Virus record (IMG/VR): IMGVR_UViG_2695420565_000002
DNA: 6,439 nt
Source: a virus
Taxonomy: Duplodnaviria; Heunggongvirae; Uroviricota; Caudoviricetes
Reading direction: 5' to 3' (one strand)
Position 1 is the first letter of the stretch; each line of letters starts with the position of its first letter. The translations under genes were made by a program, and so were the position numbers. The notes beneath the pieces were generated by a model. It saw only the letters and a list, made by a program, of their open reading frames with translations, searched no databases and was not told the DNA's origin. Below are positions 1-6,439 of this stretch, piece after piece.

Positions 1-34
1 GGACTTCAGGGGAAAAACGAGTATTTTTAGTCAT
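1..34 (-). CDS. IS3-family transposase OrfA, N-terminal 11 codons only (partial, continues beyond window)
   Basis: ATG at 34..32 (minus) preceded by AAGAGGT SD with 8-nt spacer; translation MTKNTRFSPEV; sits inside the IS terminal region. Confidence 0.65.
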   Translation of the reverse strand, partial: MTKNTRFSPEV

Positions 35-88
35 CCTGTTTACCTCTTTCTCAGGAAGTTTAGTCTCCAGGATTCCCGGGGCGGTTCA
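1..88 (-). mobile_element. Left end of an IS3-family insertion sequence (IS629/IS1203-like), partial; rest of element lies beyond the window start
   Basis: Minus strand reads 5'-TGAACCGCCCCGGGAATCCTGGAGACTAAACTTCCTGAGAAAGAGGTAAACAGG-ATG from position 88 downward: a TGA-initiated terminal inverted repeat followed by an SD and an ORF start encoding MTKNTRFSPEV, which I recall as the N-terminus of IS629-group OrfA. Identification is from memory, not a search. Confidence 0.75.
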
Positions 89-560
89 GTAAGGGGGTAT
101 TTGTATTTATTGTCTTTTGTATATTGTCTTTTGTGTTTAGCTGACTTGGCTTATACCCATTAGCCGACTTGGCTAATGTTTTATTAGCTGTTTTAGCTAA
201 TGTTAAGCTGTCCTGGCTAATCCACTGAGAAACCACCTTGTTCACTCCGATTTTCACGCCATCAGCAATGAGGAATTTACGCTCAATAAGCTGGCGCTTG
301 GCAGCGCAAACATGAGTGTGATGAATACCTGTCATGGCTGCTATCTGCGTGTTTGTGAGTCGATCCATCGGCTTATTGAATCCGTATGTCTTGCGCATGA
401 TAGCGAGCATCACCTTCAACTGCCGGACGGTTAAATCAGCCATCAGCAGACTGTCGGTAATCTCGTTAGCAACGCGCATGAAACCATCTTCGGTATCTGC
501 CACGCGATGCTCCACGACCTCCAGTTGAGGCCTGTAATCAGCTAACTTAACGACGCCCAT
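60..560 (-). CDS. O: Lambda O-like replication initiator, N-terminal iteron-binding domain intact; C-terminus replaced by IS-derived codons (truncated by IS insertion)
   Basis: 166-aa ORF; motif LTVRQLKVMLAIMRKTYGFNKPMDRLTNTQIAAMTG resembles lambda O N-terminal domain (LTKRQFKVLLAILRKTYGWNKPMDRITDSQL, recalled). Strong SD AGGAG 6 nt upstream of ATG at 560. Iterons lie inside the coding sequence as in lambda O. Codon 158 spans the IS junction at 88/89, so the last 8 residues and the stop (62..60) are encoded by the IS inverted repeat. Confidence 0.8.
   Translation of the reverse strand: MGVVKLADYRPQLEVVEHRVADTEDGFMRVANEITDSLLMADLTVRQLKVMLAIMRKTYGFNKPMDRLTNTQIAAMTGIHHTHVCAAKRQLIERKFLIADGVKIGVNKVVSQWISQDSLTLAKTANKTLAKSANGYKPSQLNTKDNIQKTINTNTPLLNRPGNPGD
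98..136. repeat. AT-rich region of the replication origin, with a 13-bp direct repeat TATTGTCTTTTGT at 108..120 and 122..134
   Basis: Directly visible; strongly T-rich on the plus strand, immediately flanking the iteron array, matching the iterons-then-AT-rich layout of ori-lambda when read in the O coding direction. Confidence 0.55.
137..220. repeat. Origin iterons: four imperfect 17-18 bp dyad-symmetric repeats (TTAGCyGnyTTrGCTAA)
   Basis: Copies at 137..153 TTAGCTGACTTGGCTTA, 160..176 TTAGCCGACTTGGCTAA, 184..200 TTAGCTGTTTTAGCTAA, 203..220 TTAAGCTGTCCTGGCTAA; spacing 23, 24, 19 bp; embedded in the O-like gene. Confidence 0.7.
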
Positions 561-708
561 GTTTCACTCCTGCTTTGGCTAGTCTGTAAACACCAACAAG
601 GCGTTCTACGAACGCCCTGTTATTTGCTGCGGCTACCACTAATCCCTCAGGTGAATCAGGGTGTCGAATCTCTTCTTTTTCCTGGTATTTCTTACGACGT
701 TTTGTCAT
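547..708 (-). CDS. Small basic hypothetical protein (53 aa) between cII and O, not in the supplied ORF track
   Basis: ATG at 708..706 preceded by AGGAG with 5-nt spacer; translation MTKRRKKYQEKEEIRHPDSPEGLVVAAANNRAFVERLVGVYRLAKAGVKHGRR; stop TAA at 549..547 overlaps the first codons of the O-like gene, suggesting translational coupling. No homolog recognised. Confidence 0.4.
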   Translation of the reverse strand: MTKRRKKYQEKEEIRHPDSPEGLVVAAANNRAFVERLVGVYRLAKAGVKHGRR

Positions 709-717
709 AATTACTCC

Positions 718-785
718 TGTAGATTGATCCAGTCTTTCTACATCAGGCCTCGAAGAATTCGCCGTTCTTCGGGGCTTTTTCTTTT
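718..785 (+). ncRNA. Candidate OOP-like antisense RNA ending at an intrinsic terminator inside the cII 3' end
   Basis: Plus-strand hairpin with 11-bp stem 747..757/765..775 (one G-U pair), 7-nt loop, then TTTTTCTTTT 776..785; antisense to the last about 40 nt of cII. Possible extended -10 TGtCATAAT at 703..711. The 5' end is a guess. Confidence 0.4.
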
Positions 786-1024
786 GTCAGGTAATCGGCA
801 AGCCGCTTAGTCAATTCAGCCATTTCATCGTCTTCGATTCCGTATTCCAGAACAGCAAGCATCATGCTTACCTGCGAGAAGAAACCATTCTTCCATCGGC
901 TTACCTGATATTCAGGAACCCCCATTGCTCGAGCGAATGTCTTCTGCCCCATCAGTGCCAGTTTGTTCAGCAAGGCCGACTCGATGCGAGCCGCTTTCTT
1001 GCTTTTAGTTGCAATAGTACCCAT
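743..1024 (-). CDS. cII: Transcriptional activator CII (lambda cII homolog)
   Basis: 93 aa; RIESALLNKLALMG...QVSRWKNGF...FSQVSMMLAVLEYGIEDDEMAEL parallels lambda CII (RIESALLNKIAMLG...QISRWKRDWIPKFSMLLAVLEWGVVDDDMARL, recalled). SD AAGGA 8 nt upstream; located downstream of cro and nutR as in lambda. Confidence 0.9.
   Translation of the reverse strand: MGTIATKSKKAARIESALLNKLALMGQKTFARAMGVPEYQVSRWKNGFFSQVSMMLAVLEYGIEDDEMAELTKRLADYLTKEKAPKNGEFFEA
747..785 (+). terminator. Rho-independent terminator, antisense to cII 3' end
   Basis: GCCTCGAAGAA-ttcgccg-TTCTTCGGGGC followed by TTTTTCTTTT. Confidence 0.7.
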
Positions 1025-1100
1025 AGATAATTTCCTTAATGATTAGATAGAGTTGGCTTCGCAAAGAAACGCAAAACCATAGAGATTTGTTTCTGGTAAT

Positions 1101-1132
1101 GCCCTTTTTCAGGGCGGGGATGTGTAAGAGCG
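1101..1132 (-). promoter_or_regulatory. nutR antitermination site (boxA + boxB)
   Basis: Minus strand reads CGCTCTTACACATCC (boxA, 1132..1118) then GCCCTGAAAAAGGGC (boxB, 1115..1101); boxB matches lambda nutR boxB as recalled; placed between cro and cII. Confidence 0.8.
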
Positions 1133-1140
1133 GGAATGTC

Positions 1141-1356
1141 TTAAGCGGCTTTGTGTTCCGGCGGGAACACGTCATCAAGACTGACTTTTGCGCCTAACTT
1201 GTTTAGGCACTCAACAAGAGCACGGCATGTTTTAAGGTCTGGGAAGCGACGACCAGATTCCCAATGTCCGATAGCTCCCTGTGTGCATCCAACTGCCTTA
1301 GCAAGTGTTGTTTGAGAGATATTCAGTGACTCTCGATATTTTCGTAGGTTGCTCAT
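1141..1356 (-). CDS. cro: Cro-like HTH repressor (71 aa), non-lambda immunity type
   Basis: ATG at 1356 preceded by GGAGG (4-nt spacer). [26 protein letters not shown] resembles the cI HTH in this window ([23 protein letters not shown]). Divergent from cI across an operator region. The track's longer ORF begins at a TTG inside the predicted pR -10 and is not used. Confidence 0.8.
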
Positions 1357-1382
1357 ATGCCCTCCATAGTAACCATGAAACA

Positions 1383-1411
1383 ATAATACGATATGTACTT
1401 TTAGAATGCAA
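1383..1411 (-). promoter_or_regulatory. pR-like promoter for cro/cII/O
   Basis: Minus strand -35 TTGCAT (plus 1406..1411), 17-bp spacer, -10 TATTAT (plus 1383..1388); operator OR1 lies in the spacer. Confidence 0.6.
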
Positions 1412-1457
1412 GCAAAAATACATCTTGTGCATGGATGGTTTTAGTACAGAGCGTAAT
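1385..1457. promoter_or_regulatory. Right operator region with three 15-bp candidate repressor sites of the form ArTAC-N5-GTnnT
   Basis: 1385..1399 AATACGATATGTACT, 1417..1431 AATACATCTTGTGCA, 1443..1457 AGTACAGAGCGTAAT; related to the perfect dyad AGTACAAATCGTACT at pL (2264..2278). Confidence 0.5.
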
Positions 1458-1472
1458 AATAAGGGTATGAAA

Positions 1473-2126
1473 ATGAAATGGTATGAACTGGCTAGATCCA
1501 GAATGAAAGAGCTCGGCATAACTCAAGAGAAGTTAGCTGAAGAGCTTGGTATGACGCAGGGTGGAATTGGTCACTGGTTGCGCGGATCTCGTCATCCATC
1601 TCTTGACGAGATTGGTGTGGTGTTTAAATACCTTGGTATTGATAACGTCTCATTCAACCACGACGGTACATTTTCACCTGTTGGCGAATACTCATCTGCC
1701 CCCGTTAAAAAACAATATGAGTACCCTGTTTTTTCTCATGTTCAGGCAGGGATGTTCTCGCCTGAGCTTAGAACCTTTACCAAAGGTGATGCGGAGAGAT
1801 GGGTCAGCACAACCAAAAAAGCCAGTGATTGTGCGTTTTGGCTTGAAGTTGAAGGTAATTCCATGACCGCGCCAACAGGATCGAAGCCAAGCTTTCCTGA
1901 CGGGATGTTAATTCTCGTTGACCCCGAGCAGGCTGTTGAGCCAGGTGATTTCTGCATAGCCAGACTTGGTGGTGACGAGTTTACCTTCAAGAAACTGATC
2001 AGGGATAGCGGTCAGGTGTTCCTACAGCCACTAAACCCGCAATATCCAATGATTCCATGCAATGATAGCTGTTCCGTAGTAGGGAAAGTTATCGCCAGCC
2101 AGTGGCCTGAAGAGACATTTAGTTAA
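1473..2126 (+). CDS. cI: CI-type prophage repressor with LexA/S24-like autocleavage domain; hybrid (novel N-terminal HTH domain, lambda-type C-terminal domain)
   Basis: From [38 protein letters not shown] onward the protein matches lambda CI C-terminal domain almost residue for residue (recalled); N-terminal 80 aa differ and carry an XRE-type HTH. Start chosen at ATG 1473 (AAGGG 7 nt upstream); ATG 1467 is an alternative. Confidence 0.92.
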
Positions 2127-2157
2127 CAGCCTCACCACTCTAAAACACACAACAATA

Positions 2158-2188
2158 ACCCGACCTTAGCGTCGGGTTTTCTTTTTCC
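2158..2188 (+). terminator. Rho-independent terminator downstream of cI
   Basis: ACCCGAC-cttagc-GTCGGGT 7-bp stem followed by TTTCTTTTTCC. Confidence 0.7.
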
Positions 2189-2251
2189 AAAATATAAACC
2201 CATTAAATACAAAGCGTTATAAAAAAGTAGTTATATTTAGAACATTTTGTA

Positions 2252-2287
2252 TTGACTCGATAAAGTACAAATCGTACTATTTAGCCA
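2252..2287 (+). promoter_or_regulatory. pL-like early-left promoter with operator OL1
   Basis: -35 TTGACT 2252..2257, 17-bp spacer, -10 TACTAT 2275..2280; perfect dyad AGTACAAATCGTACT 2264..2278 overlaps spacer and -10; downstream ATCAGCAGGACGCACTGACCACCATGAAGGTGA matches the lambda pL transcript start as recalled. Confidence 0.75.
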
Positions 2288-2319
2288 TCAGCAGGACGCA
2301 CTGACCACCATGAAGGTGA

Positions 2320-2350
2320 GGCTCTTAAAAATTAAGCCCTGAAGAAGGGC
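2320..2350 (+). promoter_or_regulatory. nutL antitermination site (boxA + boxB)
   Basis: GGCTCTTAAAAATTAA then boxB GCCCTGAAGAAGGGC (2336..2350), matching lambda nutL as recalled. Confidence 0.85.
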
Positions 2351-2548
2351 AGCATTCAAAGCAGAAGGCTTTGGGATTGGATGAATGAGCAGGCTTATGC
2401 TCGACCAATGTATAAACAGCGCTCATGGCAAGCAGTAACCAATCTGCGCCTCAAGACAGCGTCACTGGTAGTGCGGGCGCTCTAACCAGTAAGCCGGGGT
2501 TCAGCGCCGGCCATCCAATCACCAAAGCTAACTGACAGGAGAATCCAG

Positions 2549-2881
2549 ATGGATGCACAAACACGCCGCCGCGAACGTCGCGCAGAGAAACAGGCTCAAT
2601 GGAAAGCAGCAAATCCCCTGTTGGTTGGGGTAAGCGCAAAACCAGTTAACCGCCCTATTCTCTCGCTGAATCGCAAACCGAAATCACGAGTAGAAAGCGC
2701 ACTGAATCCGATAGACCTTACAGTGCTGGCTGAATACCACGAACAGATTGAAAGCAACCTGCAACGTATTGAGCGCAAGAATCAGCGCACATGGTACAGC
2801 AAGCCACGCAGTGAAATGGGTGTGACCTGTTCAGGCCGCCAGAAGCAACGCGGAAAATCAATTCCAGCTTATTACGATTGA
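2549..2881 (+). CDS. N: Antitermination protein N
   Basis: 110 aa beginning MDAQTRRRERRAEKQAQWKAANPLLVGVSAKPVNRPILSLNRKPKSRVESALNPIDLTVLAEYH, matching lambda N from memory, including the arginine-rich boxB-binding motif; AGGAG SD; downstream of nutL. Confidence 0.95.
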   Translation: MDAQTRRRERRAEKQAQWKAANPLLVGVSAKPVNRPILSLNRKPKSRVESALNPIDLTVLAEYHEQIESNLQRIERKNQRTWYSKPRSEMGVTCSGRQKQRGKSIPAYYD

Positions 2882-2888
2882 GGTGGTC

Positions 2889-3026
2889 ATGCTCAAGAAA
2901 ATCAAACGCCGACTTTACAAAGAAGGTAGATATTCATGCCAATTGCCAAAATGCGACACAACAAAATGGAGTGTCGATGATTGGTGTAACTGGATAGATA
3001 GATACGGAACTTGGTGGGATAAATAA
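2889..3026 (+). CDS. Hypothetical small Cys/Trp-rich protein (45 aa)
   Basis: ATG 2889 with GAGGTG just upstream overlapping the N stop; MLKKIKRRLYKEGRYSCQLPKCDTTKWSVDDWCNWIDRYGTWWDK; occupies the position where lambda carries sieB. Below the ORF-track length cutoff. Confidence 0.3.
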   Translation: MLKKIKRRLYKEGRYSCQLPKCDTTKWSVDDWCNWIDRYGTWWDK

Positions 3027-3080
3027 CAGGTAACTTAAGCGTATTTACTTTCGCGGCAAACCACATATTTGAGGTGAGAT

Positions 3081-3167
3081 ATGGAAGAAGAATTTGAAGA
3101 GTTCGAAGAGCATCCGCAGGATGTGATGGAACAATACCAGGACTATCCGTATGACTACGACTATTGA
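3081..3167 (+). CDS. Highly acidic 28-aa peptide (lambda orf28 equivalent)
   Basis: GAGGTG SD 4 nt upstream of ATG 3081; MEEEFEEFEEHPQDVMEQYQDYPYDYDY; overlaps the ral start by 17 nt in another frame; same position as lambda orf28 upstream of ral. Confidence 0.55.
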   Translation: MEEEFEEFEEHPQDVMEQYQDYPYDYDY

Positions 3168-3351
3168 TACAAATCAATGGTGTGGACAATTCAAGCGATG
3201 CAATGGATGCAAGCTGCAATCGGAATACATGGTTAAGCCTGAAGAAATGTTTCCTGTAATGGAAGATGGGAAATATGTCGATAAATGGGCAATACGAACG
3301 ACGGCAATGATTGCCAGAGAACTTGGTAAACAGAATAACAAGGCTGCCTGA
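3151..3351 (+). CDS. ral: Restriction alleviation protein Ral
   Basis: 66 aa MTTTIDTNQWCGQFKRCNGCKLQSEYMVKPEEMFPVMEDGKYVDKWAIRTTAMIARELGKQNNKAA, nearly identical to lambda Ral as recalled. Confidence 0.92.
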   Translation: MTTTIDTNQWCGQFKRCNGCKLQSEYMVKPEEMFPVMEDGKYVDKWAIRTTAMIARELGKQNNKAA

Positions 3352-3390
3352 TGGTGGCCTTTATTTTTGGCATAAACAACAGAGGATAAC

Positions 3391-3687
3391 ATGGAATTTA
3401 AAGGTACTGAAGGCAAGTGGGAAATAATGATGGATGGCGATGAGATTAAAATAATCCAGGCAGACTCACTTGAAAATGGCGCAGGCTGGCGTTCGTATAT
3501 TGCAATCTGTGAGGAAGTTCAATGTATTGAAGATGCCAATCTAATAGCGGCAGCACCTGACCTTCTCGAAGCACTTCAGTTATTACTTAAGCAATCCAAA
3601 AATAGAACAACGACAACATATCCAGAATGGTATGGAGCTGTTAATAAAGGTCTTGCAGCAATCAGCAAGGCTCTGGGAGGTGAATGA
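3391..3687 (+). CDS. Hypothetical protein (98 aa), early-left operon
   Basis: AGAGGA SD 4 nt upstream; protein-like composition; stop overlaps the next start (ATGA). No family recognised. Confidence 0.7.
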   Translation: MEFKGTEGKWEIMMDGDEIKIIQADSLENGAGWRSYIAICEEVQCIEDANLIAAAPDLLEALQLLLKQSKNRTTTTYPEWYGAVNKGLAAISKALGGE

Positions 3688-3887
3688 TGTGCGAGTTTTA
3701 TGAAGCAGATATCAAACGCCCAGAAATGGCAAGTGATGCGACATTACGTGATTACTTCGCGGCAAAGGCTATGCAAGCAATGATTAGCAATCCATCGATT
3801 ATCGATAATGATTCTGATGGAGTTGTTAATTATGCAGCAAGCGCTGCATATAAGTTTGCAGACGCAATGCTCAAAGCTCGCGAATAA
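3684..3887 (+). CDS. Hypothetical protein (67 aa; 66 aa if starting at ATG 3687)
   Basis: GGGAGG SD at 3675..3680; ATGA overlap with the upstream gene; MMCEFYEADIKRPEMASDATLRDYFAAKAMQAM...; no family recognised. Confidence 0.65.
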   Translation: MMCEFYEADIKRPEMASDATLRDYFAAKAMQAMISNPSIIDNDSDGVVNYAASAAYKFADAMLKARE

Positions 3888-3892
3888 GCACT

Positions 3893-3920
3893 GTGTATTC
3901 ATTCCAACGAGTGAATACAC
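3893..3920 (+). other. Strong RNA hairpin without U-tract (12-bp stem GTGTATTCATTC / GAGTGAATACAC, loop CAAC)
   Basis: Stem seen directly in sequence, 5 nt after the stop of the 67-aa gene; not followed by a T-run, so not a typical intrinsic terminator. Confidence 0.5.
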
Positions 3921-3982
3921 GGAGCAATGTCGCTCGTAACTAAACAGGAGCCGACTTGTTCTGATTATTGGAAATCTTCTTT

Positions 3983-4010
3983 GCCCTCCGATGTGGGGGG
4001 CCTTTTTATA
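3983..4010 (+). terminator. Rho-independent terminator within the early-left operon, upstream of the cIII-like gene
   Basis: GCCCTCC-gatgt-GGGGGGC (7 bp, one G-U) followed by CTTTTTATA. Confidence 0.6.
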
Positions 4011-4073
4011 TGCATACCAATAACGCTTCACTCGAGGCGTTTTCGTTATGCAATCAAACAGAAGGAGCATCCT

Positions 4074-4244
4074 ATGCAACAGTTCGCTATTGCAGGGGCG
4101 GCATCGGTTCGCCCTTTCAACCCGATTTTATCGGTACAGCATTCACGAAAAAACATTTTAACCGGAGCAGACTTTAAACAACCAAGAATGAAAAGTTTGC
4201 TCGAAAAGCTTTGGGATATTTTGAAACAACAAGGCCGTCCATGA
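4074..4244 (+). CDS. CIII-like protein (56 aa), putative FtsH/HflB inhibitor
   Basis: GAAGGAG SD 6 nt upstream of ATG 4074; N-terminus MQQFAIAG and C-terminus SLLEKLWDILKQQGRP resemble lambda CIII (MQYAIAG...RLIDILNQPGVP, recalled); the central region differs. The longer track ORF from 3927 would span the terminator and is not used. Confidence 0.5.
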   Translation: MQQFAIAGAASVRPFNPILSVQHSRKNILTGADFKQPRMKSLLEKLWDILKQQGRP

Positions 4245-4411
4245 GTTTTACAGATAACTGGTCAGACGAAGAATTCATTCGTCAGATGAAAGAATTAATC
4301 GGTAACGAAGGAGATATTCATGTCACTTGCAACCACAGTGAAGGAGAGCAAGTTACAGAGACGCATGTACACGCAGCAGGCGTTAATGTATCGCCAGAAG
4401 GGAGATCGTGA
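4241..4411 (+). CDS. Hypothetical small acidic protein (56 aa), start overlaps cIII-like stop (ATGA)
   Basis: MSFTDNWSDEEFIRQMKELIGNEGDIH...; weak SD; C-terminal half looks less protein-like; overlaps an alternative-frame ORF with a much better SD. Confidence 0.4.
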   Translation: MSFTDNWSDEEFIRQMKELIGNEGDIHVTCNHSEGEQVTETHVHAAGVNVSPEGRS

Positions 4412-4490
4412 AGGTGTTCGCGTATTTTTAAATGCGGCAAAGACTGAAGTATTAAATCAGCGTTATTTCCTTGGGCCATGTCCATTCTGA
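4320..4490 (+). CDS. Hypothetical small protein (56 aa) in alternative frame, not in the ORF track
   Basis: AAGGAG SD at 4308..4313, 6-nt spacer, ATG 4320; MSLATTVKESKLQRRMYTQQALMYRQKGDREGVRVFLNAAKTEVLNQRYFLGPCPF; ends 8 nt before the SSAP start. Sits where lambda has kil/gam. Confidence 0.45.
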   Translation: MSLATTVKESKLQRRMYTQQALMYRQKGDREGVRVFLNAAKTEVLNQRYFLGPCPF

Positions 4491-4498
4491 GGTGAATT

Positions 4499-5206
4499 AT
4501 GGATTTGAATAAATTCGATGAGCCATTCAGCCCTGAAGATATCGAATGGCGAATACAGCAAAGCGGTAAAACACGCGATGGCAAAGTGTGGGCTATGGTG
4601 CTGGCTTATGTCACGAACCGGGCAATCATGAAACGCCTGGACGATGTTTGCGGCAAAGCAGGATGGCGCAATGAATACCGCGATATTCCCAACAACGGCG
4701 GCGTTGAATGCGGCATATCGATAAAGATTGATTCCGAATGGGTAACCAAATGGGATGCTGCTGAAAACACGCAGGTAGAAGCCGTCAAAGGTGGTCGTTC
4801 CGGTGCAATGAAGCGCGCTGCCGTTCAGTGGGGAATCGGTCGGTATCTGTATAACCTTGAGGAAGGTTTCGCACAAACATCTCTCGATAAAAAGCAGGGG
4901 TGGCACAGGGCAAAACTGAAGGATGGAACAGGATTTTACTGGCTACCTCCATCGCTGCCGGGATGGGCAATCCCAGCATCAGATAACAAACCATCACCAG
5001 AAAATACCAACCAGAAATCTCCATCGGTTGACTGCGAACAAATCCTGAAAGACTTCAGCGATTATGCATCAACAGAAACTGACAAGAAAAAACTCATAGA
5101 ACGTTATCAGCATGACTGGCAATTAATGGCTGGCAATGAGGATGCGCAGGCTAAATGCGTTCAGGTAATGAACATCAGAGTTAACGAACTAAAACAGGCG
5201 GCATAA
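4499..5206 (+). CDS. Rad52/Sak-type single-strand annealing protein (phage recombinase)
   Basis: 235 aa; motifs AYVTNRAIMKRLDDVCGKAGWRNEY and GAMKRAAVQWGIGRYLYNL match the Rad52-superfamily signature (ALKRxxxxFGIGRYLY) as I recall it; immediately followed by ssb. Confidence 0.8.
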   Translation: MDLNKFDEPFSPEDIEWRIQQSGKTRDGKVWAMVLAYVTNRAIMKRLDDVCGKAGWRNEYRDIPNNGGVECGISIKIDSEWVTKWDAAENTQVEAVKGGRSGAMKRAAVQWGIGRYLYNLEEGFAQTSLDKKQGWHRAKLKDGTGFYWLPPSLPGWAIPASDNKPSPENTNQKSPSVDCEQILKDFSDYASTETDKKKLIERYQHDWQLMAGNEDAQAKCVQVMNIRVNELKQAA

Positions 5207-5713
5207 ATGGCAAGCAGAGGCGTAAATAAGGTGATTATCCTTGGTCGGGTAGGACAAGACCCGGAAGTTCGATACTCACCATCAGGAACAGCGTTCGCTA
5301 ACCTGACAATAGCCACGTCAGAACAATGGCGAGATAAAAATACTGGCGAGCAAAAGGAATTGACTGAATGGCATCGTGTTGCTGTATCCGGGAAACTGGC
5401 TGAGGTCGTGGGGCAGTATGTGAAAAAAGGTGATCAGATTTATTTCGAGGGAATGCTGAGAACCAGAAAGTGGAAAGACCAGTCAGGGCAAGACCGTTAC
5501 ACAACCGAGGTTCATGTCGGAATTAATGGCGTGATGCAAATGCTTGGCGGCATTGGCGACAGCAAACAACAAGCAGCCAGCAGGCAATCACAGAAGCCAC
5601 AGCAGCAATCATCACCAGCACAACACAACGAACCTCCGATGGATTTTGACGACGATATACCCTTTGCACCAGTAACTCTCCCCTTCCCTCGTCACGCTAT
5701 TCACGCAATTTAA
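5207..5713 (+). CDS. ssb: Single-stranded DNA-binding protein SSB, with C-terminal extension beyond the DDDIPF motif
   Basis: N-terminal OB-fold region [23 protein letters not shown]...[15 protein letters not shown]...[19 protein letters not shown] closely parallels E. coli SSB; Gln/Pro-rich linker; [10 protein letters not shown] is followed by 15 more residues ([15 protein letters not shown]) before the stop. Confidence 0.93.
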
Positions 5714-5726
5714 TCAGGAGAAAATC

Positions 5727-6023
5727 ATGCCAGCGCCTCTGTATGGTGCGGATGACCCGCGCCGCTGTTCCGGCAATTCCGTATCGGAGGTGCTGGATAA
5801 ATTCAGAAAAAACTACGATCGGATAATGTCTCTACCGCAGGAAACGAAAGATGAAAAGGAATTTCGCCATTGTATATGGCTTGCAGAGAAAGAAGAACGA
5901 GAGCGAATTTACCAGACATCAATCCGACCATTCCGCAAAGCCACATATACCCACTTCCCTGAATATATCGACCCGCGCCTGCGTAATTACCGCTCACGCT
6001 ATGGCGCTATCAGTAATGACTGA
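5727..6023 (+). CDS. Hypothetical protein (98 aa)
   Basis: AGGAG SD 6 nt upstream of ATG 5727; basic, protein-like composition; no family recognised. Confidence 0.6.
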
Positions 6024-6033
6024 GGAATTTACC

Positions 6034-6198
6034 ATGAGAGGACTTGCATACAATCCCGGCATTCTTCCGGCAGAAATGATTATTCGCCAACGCGTAAAGC
6101 CAATGCCATCGAGAGAGGAATTGCTTAAGAGAAATAGTTTCTGTTCTGTTAATGACAACAAATATCTGAATGCAATGTGGCGGAGTGGGAAAAAATGA
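6034..6198 (+). CDS. Hypothetical small protein (54 aa)
   Basis: TGAGGAA SD 6 nt upstream of ATG 6034; the track's longer ORF (5851..6198) overlaps the upstream gene and lacks an SD at its start. Confidence 0.45.
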
Positions 6199-6320
6199 CA
6201 ATCACAAAACAACGTGTAGAAGAAATCATATCCCGCATTGAAATGTATGGGCATGGTGCAGGGTATACCGCTGACGAGGTTTATGACCTGGCTGTACTGG
6301 CGCTGAATTTATCAAATTGA
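6195..6320 (+). CDS. Hypothetical small protein (41 aa), possibly a gene fragment terminated by the IS terminal TGA
   Basis: ATG 6195 overlaps the upstream stop (ATGA); [41 protein letters not shown]; its stop TGA 6318..6320 coincides with the first three bases of the IS inverted repeat. Confidence 0.4.
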
Positions 6321-6439
6321 GGTAGCCTGAGTTTAACGGACACTCCTTCCTGAAATAGAATGGCATCAGAAGGAGCTAATAATGAGCAGAAAAACCCAAC
6401 GTTACTCTAAAGAGTTCAAAGCCGAAGCTGTCAGAACGG
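6318..6439 (+). mobile_element. Left end of a second IS3-family insertion sequence (IS600-like), partial; continues beyond window end
   Basis: TGAGGTAGCCTGAGTTTAACGGACACTCC... terminal repeat starting with TGA, then AAGGAG SD and orfA start MSRKTQRYSKEFKAEAVRT. The SxEFKxEAV motif is typical of IS3-family OrfA HTH proteins; the IS600 assignment is from memory. Confidence 0.7.
6382..6439 (+). CDS. IS3-family transposase OrfA, N-terminal 19 codons (partial)
   Basis: ATG 6382, AAGGAG SD with 6-nt spacer; MSRKTQRYSKEFKAEAVRT. Confidence 0.7.
   Translation, partial: MSRKTQRYSKEFKAEAVRT

Follow-up and report, generated by a model that had tools for sequence, protein, structure and literature searches.

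The window analyzed here, a 6,439-nucleotide stretch of tailed-phage DNA, ends on its right side just beyond a reading frame of 41 codons whose stop codon coincides with the first bases of an insertion sequence (IS). Phage sequence also gives way to IS sequence at the left end. This arrangement raises the question of whether a prophage gene was cut by insertion and, if so, whether the rest of that gene and of its operon has been lost or lies on the far side of the IS. A sequence-only reading of the window had settled on loss, describing a prophage remnant bracketed by two different IS elements. We addressed the question by comparing the window with IS copies, phage genomes, and E. coli assemblies.

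IS600 supplies the stop codon of a 41-codon frame

The last reading frame of the window opens with an ATG at position 6195 (+ strand), which overlaps the stop codon of the upstream DUF2737 gene (6034 to 6198, +; Pfam PF10930, phrog_1117) as ATGA. Read directly, the frame consists of 41 sense codons (6195 to 6317, +), the last of which is AAT (6315 to 6317), with TGA following at 6318 to 6320. In a megablast search against phage genomes, homology ends at window position 6317 (base 618 of the query), and from 6318 onward the window reads TGAGGTAGCCTGAGTTTAACGGACAC... The 122 bases from 6318 to 6439 match the IS600 of Shigella and E. coli plasmids at 100% identity (122/122 bases, 360 records), with a best E-value of 5e-57, and these matches are annotated as “IS600 ORF1” or “IS3-like element IS600 family transposase”. 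The second IS3-family element suspected at this end of the window is thus IS600.

As a reference we used a complete IS600 copy from an E. coli O121:H19 plasmid (L017), which is 1264 bp long and flanked by the 3-bp duplication CCT. Its orfA encodes a helix-turn-helix transposase N-terminal domain (HTH_Tnp_1, PF01527, 1.5e-20), its orfB encodes HTH_21 (PF13276) together with the rve DDE core (PF00665, 3.9e-26), and an A6G slippery motif is found at base 317. The right end of the window corresponds to bases 1 to 122 of these 1264 bases on the + strand, with no mismatch to the reference; it comprises the left inverted repeat (about 6318 to 6344, +), followed by an untranslated leader and, from the ATG at 6382 (+), by 19 codons of orfA, which begins MSRKTQRYSKEFKAEAVRT. 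The IS600 copy of the Shigella flexneri plasmid pWR501 was considered as a reference and dropped, its right end being cut by IS2. This copy is a case of IS-in-IS nesting: the last ~20 bases of IS600 are absent, and an IS2 end, TAGACTGGCCCCCTGAATCTCCAGACA, is inserted (L002, about 2850 to 2864).

The flanks of three independent IS600 copies are unrelated (..CCT, ..CAC, and ..GAC) right up to TGAGGTAGCC, which places the terminus of the element at the T of TGAGG, position 6318. Because phage homology ends at 6317, the TGA that closes the frame (6318 to 6320, +) is made up of bases 1 to 3 of IS600, as had been proposed from the sequence alone. For an insertion in random phase, the chance that the IS600 TGA is in frame is one in three, which makes an immediate stop at this junction unremarkable. 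A consensus scan also located a promoter-like sequence, TTAACG-17-TAGAAT, at 6333 to 6361 (+), in and just after the left inverted repeat and upstream of orfA. The scan returned one site, against 1.3 expected by chance, and is thus only suggestive of a promoter.

The interrupted gene is a truncated member of phrog_3126

If the 41-codon frame is a gene cut by insertion, longer versions of it should be found elsewhere. The 41-aa stub is 93 to 100% identical to the N termini of phage proteins of 100 to 205 aa. A tblastn search against phages gave 63 phage records that match over at least 80% of the stub frame, and all six complete homologues that we read continue beyond residue 41. The Sf101 protein that starts at this ATG is 205 aa long, with one difference from the stub within residues 1 to 41, and reading the gene in phages C1, LPST10, PhiR12_1, and IME10 gave proteins of 100 to 115 aa. 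Past residue 41, the homologues carry a conserved IA(K/N)(L/M)KRYELDM(D/G)GCDS...FDDVV core that extends to about residue 90. No natural 41-aa homologue was found among the phage homologues read, and a search with the 41-aa peptide returned short fragments only.

An intact allele is present in the assembly of a sibling isolate (GCA_001285425.1, reads ERR137818), in which contig CYDC01000078.1 encodes a 105-aa protein whose residues 1 to 41 are identical to the stub. This uninterrupted protein matches phrog_3126, a family of unknown function, over positions 1 to 105 of 105 (3.7e-67), and has no match in Pfam. The window frame holds residues 1 to 41 only and is therefore assigned to phrog_3126 as a truncated member, not as a full-length one. 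The 41-codon frame is thus a truncated gene, and the suggestion that a gene had been cut here proved correct.

We also considered whether the 41-aa frame could be a natural short gene, or end at a module boundary, with the IS merely adjacent to it. Three unrelated contigs end at codon 41 or 2 bases past it (L003, 10001 to 10123; L007, 601 to 723; L006, 1346 to 1470), as a natural end at this codon would predict. These contig ends are without IS sequence and show several synonymous differences from the window, and L006 goes on with AT after codon 41, as the intact gene does. Moreover, database fragments of the gene end anywhere from 38 to 52 aa, so the three contig ends probably reflect breaks in the assembly of a region that recurs among co-resident prophages. 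Together with this scatter, the conserved core that follows residue 41 in the complete homologues and the 105 aa encoded in the sibling refute a natural 41-aa gene, to which we assign a virtually nil probability. The same core and the same scatter leave codon 41 without support as a module boundary or an insertion hot spot.

Two further features of the gene family emerged from these comparisons. First, gp22 of Sf101 (L001, 3549 to 4166; 205 aa) consists of a phrog_3126 module (residues 1 to 100) and, C-terminal to it, another module (phrog_9763 and relatives), which locates the true mosaic joint of the family near residue 90 to 100. Second, pieces of the gene occur elsewhere. These include an N-terminal piece of 48 aa (P0176 and P0180) and a piece of 54 aa from Met52 (P0154), with P0180 and P0154 both recorded from one 39,935-bp Logan contig, as well as an N-terminal 35-aa piece in phage YDC107_2 (CP025713.1, about 17271 to 17389). 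Apparently the gene has been split independently in other lineages, which suggests repeated decay in prophages.

Both IS600 junctions and the empty site

An exact-protein look-up identified the window as the entire contig CYCZ01000107.1 (6,439 bp) of the E. coli draft assembly GCA_001283765.1, whose reads are ERR137813. The contig reaches 88 bases into one IS and 122 bases into the other. Since the window is a complete contig assembled from short reads, it ends in IS sequence where the assembly broke at multicopy repeats; thus, the window alone says nothing about the DNA beyond them and gives no sign that any DNA is missing. The picture of a fragment bracketed by two IS elements therefore holds as a description, whereas the conclusion that it must be a prophage remnant does not follow and is unproven.

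The sibling assembly provides the uninterrupted counterpart of the right end. Its contig CYDC01000078.1 (L012, 13.8 kb) begins within the IS629-type element at the base where the window begins and differs from window positions 1 to 6317 by a single mismatch, at 4086. Where the window reads TCAAAT/TGAGG (the slash marks the junction), the sibling reads straight through the insertion point, with the empty site TCAAAT/ATCGCAAAACTC (TCAAAT/ATCGCA). Downstream of the intact gene, it encodes Ea22 (216 aa), a DUF551 protein (285 aa), a Lar-like protein (59 aa), and open reading frames of 114 and 63 aa, and beyond these small frames lie a 392-aa tyrosine integrase and the host gene sbcB.

The frame on the far side of the insertion was predicted first, as 54 aa starting from Met52, and this exact sequence was then found in the protein collection as CTW50975.1. 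It is encoded on contig CYCZ01000104.1 (L019, 7,128 bp), which belongs to the same assembly as the window. Bases 1 to 107 of this contig are the right end of IS600, ending ...ACACCTCA, bases 108 to 110 are AAT, and base 111 is exactly the next base after the insertion point in the empty site of the sibling; the right junction (105 to 116) reads CCTCA/AAT/ATCGCA. From base 111 onward, the contig differs from the sibling by 3 mismatches in 4243 bases, and it carries the 54-aa C-terminal remnant followed by Ea22, the DUF551 and Lar-like proteins, the small open reading frames, the integrase, and sbcB. The gene is therefore split into a 41-aa stub closed by IS600 and a 64-codon remainder, of which the 54-aa frame is annotated.

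The two junctions also define the element. Its termini are TG...CA (TGAGGTAGCC at 6318 in the window and ...ACACCTCA at bases 100 to 107 of CYCZ01000104.1), its ends form imperfect inverted repeats in which 20 of the 27 terminal bases pair, and the AAT at 6315 to 6317 is present again at the other junction and single in the empty site, constituting a 3-bp direct target duplication. Such features define the IS3 family, and the element is IS600. The right end is identical to the reference copy at 105 of 107 bases. This copy is represented by its two assembled ends, its interior having collapsed in the short-read assembly, and the length of 1264 bp is that of the reference copy.

An IS600 right end followed by AAT and the resumed phage sequence indicates a simple insertion, ...TCA AAT (IS600) AAT ATC GCA... 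We weighed this against a reading in which IS600 marks the end-point of a deletion that removed the int/xis side and what followed in the gene, leaving an IS-bracketed fragment behind. Within the window alone, phage sequence does stop at IS600, and at the opposite end it also stops in an IS. However, those stops are ends of a contig, and the same assembly contains the right junction with its AAT, the remaining 64 codons, and the left arm up to the integrase and sbcB. A deletion at the IS600 side is refuted by this second junction, and as an account of the locus we consider it extremely improbable. IS600 does lie in the early-left operon, as first described, but the operon is interrupted rather than truncated. 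The accompanying claim that the int/xis/exo side is missing did not survive: the integrase and a gene in the xis position are on CYCZ01000104.1, and no exo is expected in a phage of the type that carries a Rad52-like recombinase, SSB, and Abc2 instead of lambda-type exo.

We deduce the link between CYCZ01000107.1 and CYCZ01000104.1 from the duplication they have in common and from the empty site, rather than from reads that span both. It is conceivable that a simple insertion was followed by recombination between IS600 copies, such that an inversion or translocation separated the two halves of the gene. IS600 is multicopy in such strains, with 27 copies reported in an O121:H19 strain (PMC9397093), and contigs built from short reads do not reveal which of the copies connects to a given junction. 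Yet there is no sign of rearrangement; the sibling is collinear, and the two isolates differ by 4 mismatches in about 10.5 kb in total. So few mismatches indicate that the isolates are very close relatives and that the IS600 insertion is recent, and we think it very unlikely that such a rearrangement took place. The IS600 junction is covered by none of 5,426 complete E. coli genomes.

Taken together, these observations make it very probable that a single copy of IS600 entered the phrog_3126 gene by simple transposition, in an Sf101/P22-like prophage located beside sbcB, and that the far side was retained. Members of the IS3 family such as IS911, IS2, and IS3 transpose by a copy-out/paste-in route via a circular intermediate. 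We infer that IS600 would have used this standard route to insert between codons 41 and 42, duplicating AAT. An insertion on a codon boundary by an element that begins with TGA leaves an N-terminal stub ending on the first three IS bases. Still present beyond the element are the remaining 64 codons, Ea22, the DUF551 and Lar-like genes, the small gene at the xis position, and also the integrase. The window stops 122 bases into IS600 only because assemblers working with short reads cannot get through a repeat present in many copies. We presume that the interior of this IS600 copy is intact, and we assume that the phrog_3126 gene is inactivated.

The surroundings of the insertion point to its place in the prophage. 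The + strand of the window encodes a cI-like protein (HTH_3 and Peptidase_S24), N (PF11438), Ral, a Rad52-type protein, SSB, Abc2, and the DUF2737 protein, and on both CYCZ01000104.1 and CYDC01000078.1 the genes for Ea22, the DUF551 and Lar-like proteins, and the 63-aa frame, a small gene in the xis position, are co-oriented. Such an order, with co-oriented genes leading from repressor/N to xis and int, is that of lambdoid pL (leftward early) operons; on both contigs the terminal integrase gene reads in the opposite direction to the early genes. Judged by gene order, the interrupted gene is part of a predicted pL-type leftward early operon, in which N, Ral, the recombinase of Rad52 type, SSB, Abc2, and DUF2737 precede it. 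The integrase and the start of sbcB, which is apparently full-length (474 aa), are 181 bp apart (CYCZ01000104.1, 2773 to 5557; CYDC01000078.1, 1 to 1581), and this end of the prophage is thereby placed beside sbcB. The interval between the DUF2737 and phrog_3126 genes is variable (E. coli genomes H41 to H65; L001, 2972 to 3549; L008, 245 to 895): many E. coli prophages have an HNH endonuclease gene or another open reading frame there, and the two genes overlap directly in the window.

The IS629-type end, consequences, and known systems

The opposite end of the window presents a second insertion. Positions 1 to 88 (- strand) are the left end of an IS629-type IS3-family element, 100% identical to a 1310-bp copy that has the target duplication GTC, and phage homology begins at position 89. 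The elements at the two ends are thus non-identical, IS600 and IS629-like, and their transposase orfA starts (ATG at 6382, +, and at 34, -) both read outward; on each of these points the sequence-only reading was right. The IS629-type element cuts the gene for the replication initiator O (60 to 560, -; PF04492). Comparison with an intact 246-aa O protein showed that O is cut after about 157 codons and continues through nine IS-derived residues (LNRPGNPGD) to a TAA stop at 60 to 62. The cut O gene thus reads into the left end of the element before stopping, as opposed to the immediate TGA at the IS600 junction.

Because the IS629-type insertion is common to both sibling isolates, it is older than the IS600 event. 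None of the 5,426 complete E. coli genomes covers the IS629-O junction. The distal IS ends and target duplications were recovered in part: the IS600 right end and its AAT were found, whereas an exact look-up of candidate C-terminal O fragments, built from an intact O allele, returned none from this assembly and did not yield the second IS629 junction. If the insertion into O was simple, that junction should show the 3-bp TAC (O sense strand), then ...CCCCTAACGGGG and late genes. With O cut, the prophage is likely defective, and the term “remnant” could still be right for the O side.

We next consider what the IS600 insertion could mean for the prophage. No intrinsic terminator is predicted on the + strand within IS600, and an antiterminator of the N type is encoded by the phage; accordingly, polarity on the downstream pL genes (Ea22 and the gene in the xis position) during induction may be modest. 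A more ambitious interpretation is that the IS600 insertion and the IS629-type cut in O are steps in a stepwise “grounding” of the prophage, or that codon 41/42 is a recurrent site of insertion or breakage. Grounding would disconnect excision genes from pL and leave the host with the recombination and anti-RecBCD module, and the basis put forward for a recurrent site is that three unrelated contigs end at codon 41/42. We judge this interpretation most improbable.

The preferred reading, a simple insertion with the far side retained, describes an ordinary, recent, strain-specific, textbook IS600 insertion of a kind that is already known. Its biological weight is small, since it affects a prophage gene of unknown function, and its use could at most be that of a marker telling apart the lineages of two isolates that are nearly identical. 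The lesson is rather one of method. A whole short-read contig often begins and ends inside IS copies, and a contig that runs from IS to IS must not be taken as an IS-bracketed remnant or as the loss of neighboring genes.

Among known phages, Sf101 (Lederbergvirus) offers a close parallel, with Abc2, DUF2737, the phrog_3126 gene, and Ea22 in the same order, then xis and int. It is 95.8% identical in nucleotide sequence to window positions 5727 to 6317, and its int region, which adjoins sbcB, is 98.7% identical to that of this prophage. The two differ as follows: gp22 of Sf101 (205 aa) has another C-terminal module fused to its phrog_3126 module, Sf101 has an additional gene, of 126 aa, separating DUF2737 from gp22, and the recombinase is Erf-like in Sf101 but Rad52-like and followed by SSB in the window prophage. 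As for the element, the assembled ends of the present copy show no difference from the IS600 of Shigella pINV plasmids and of STEC and ETEC E. coli. Both IS600 and IS629 belong to the IS3 family, and STEC as well as some ETEC lineages show joint amplification of the two (PMC9397093). Whereas the target here is a prophage accessory gene without a known phenotype, the insertion reported in lacZ of STEC O121:H19 involves the same element, inactivating a gene by simple insertion in an IS600/IS629-rich background (PMC9397093).
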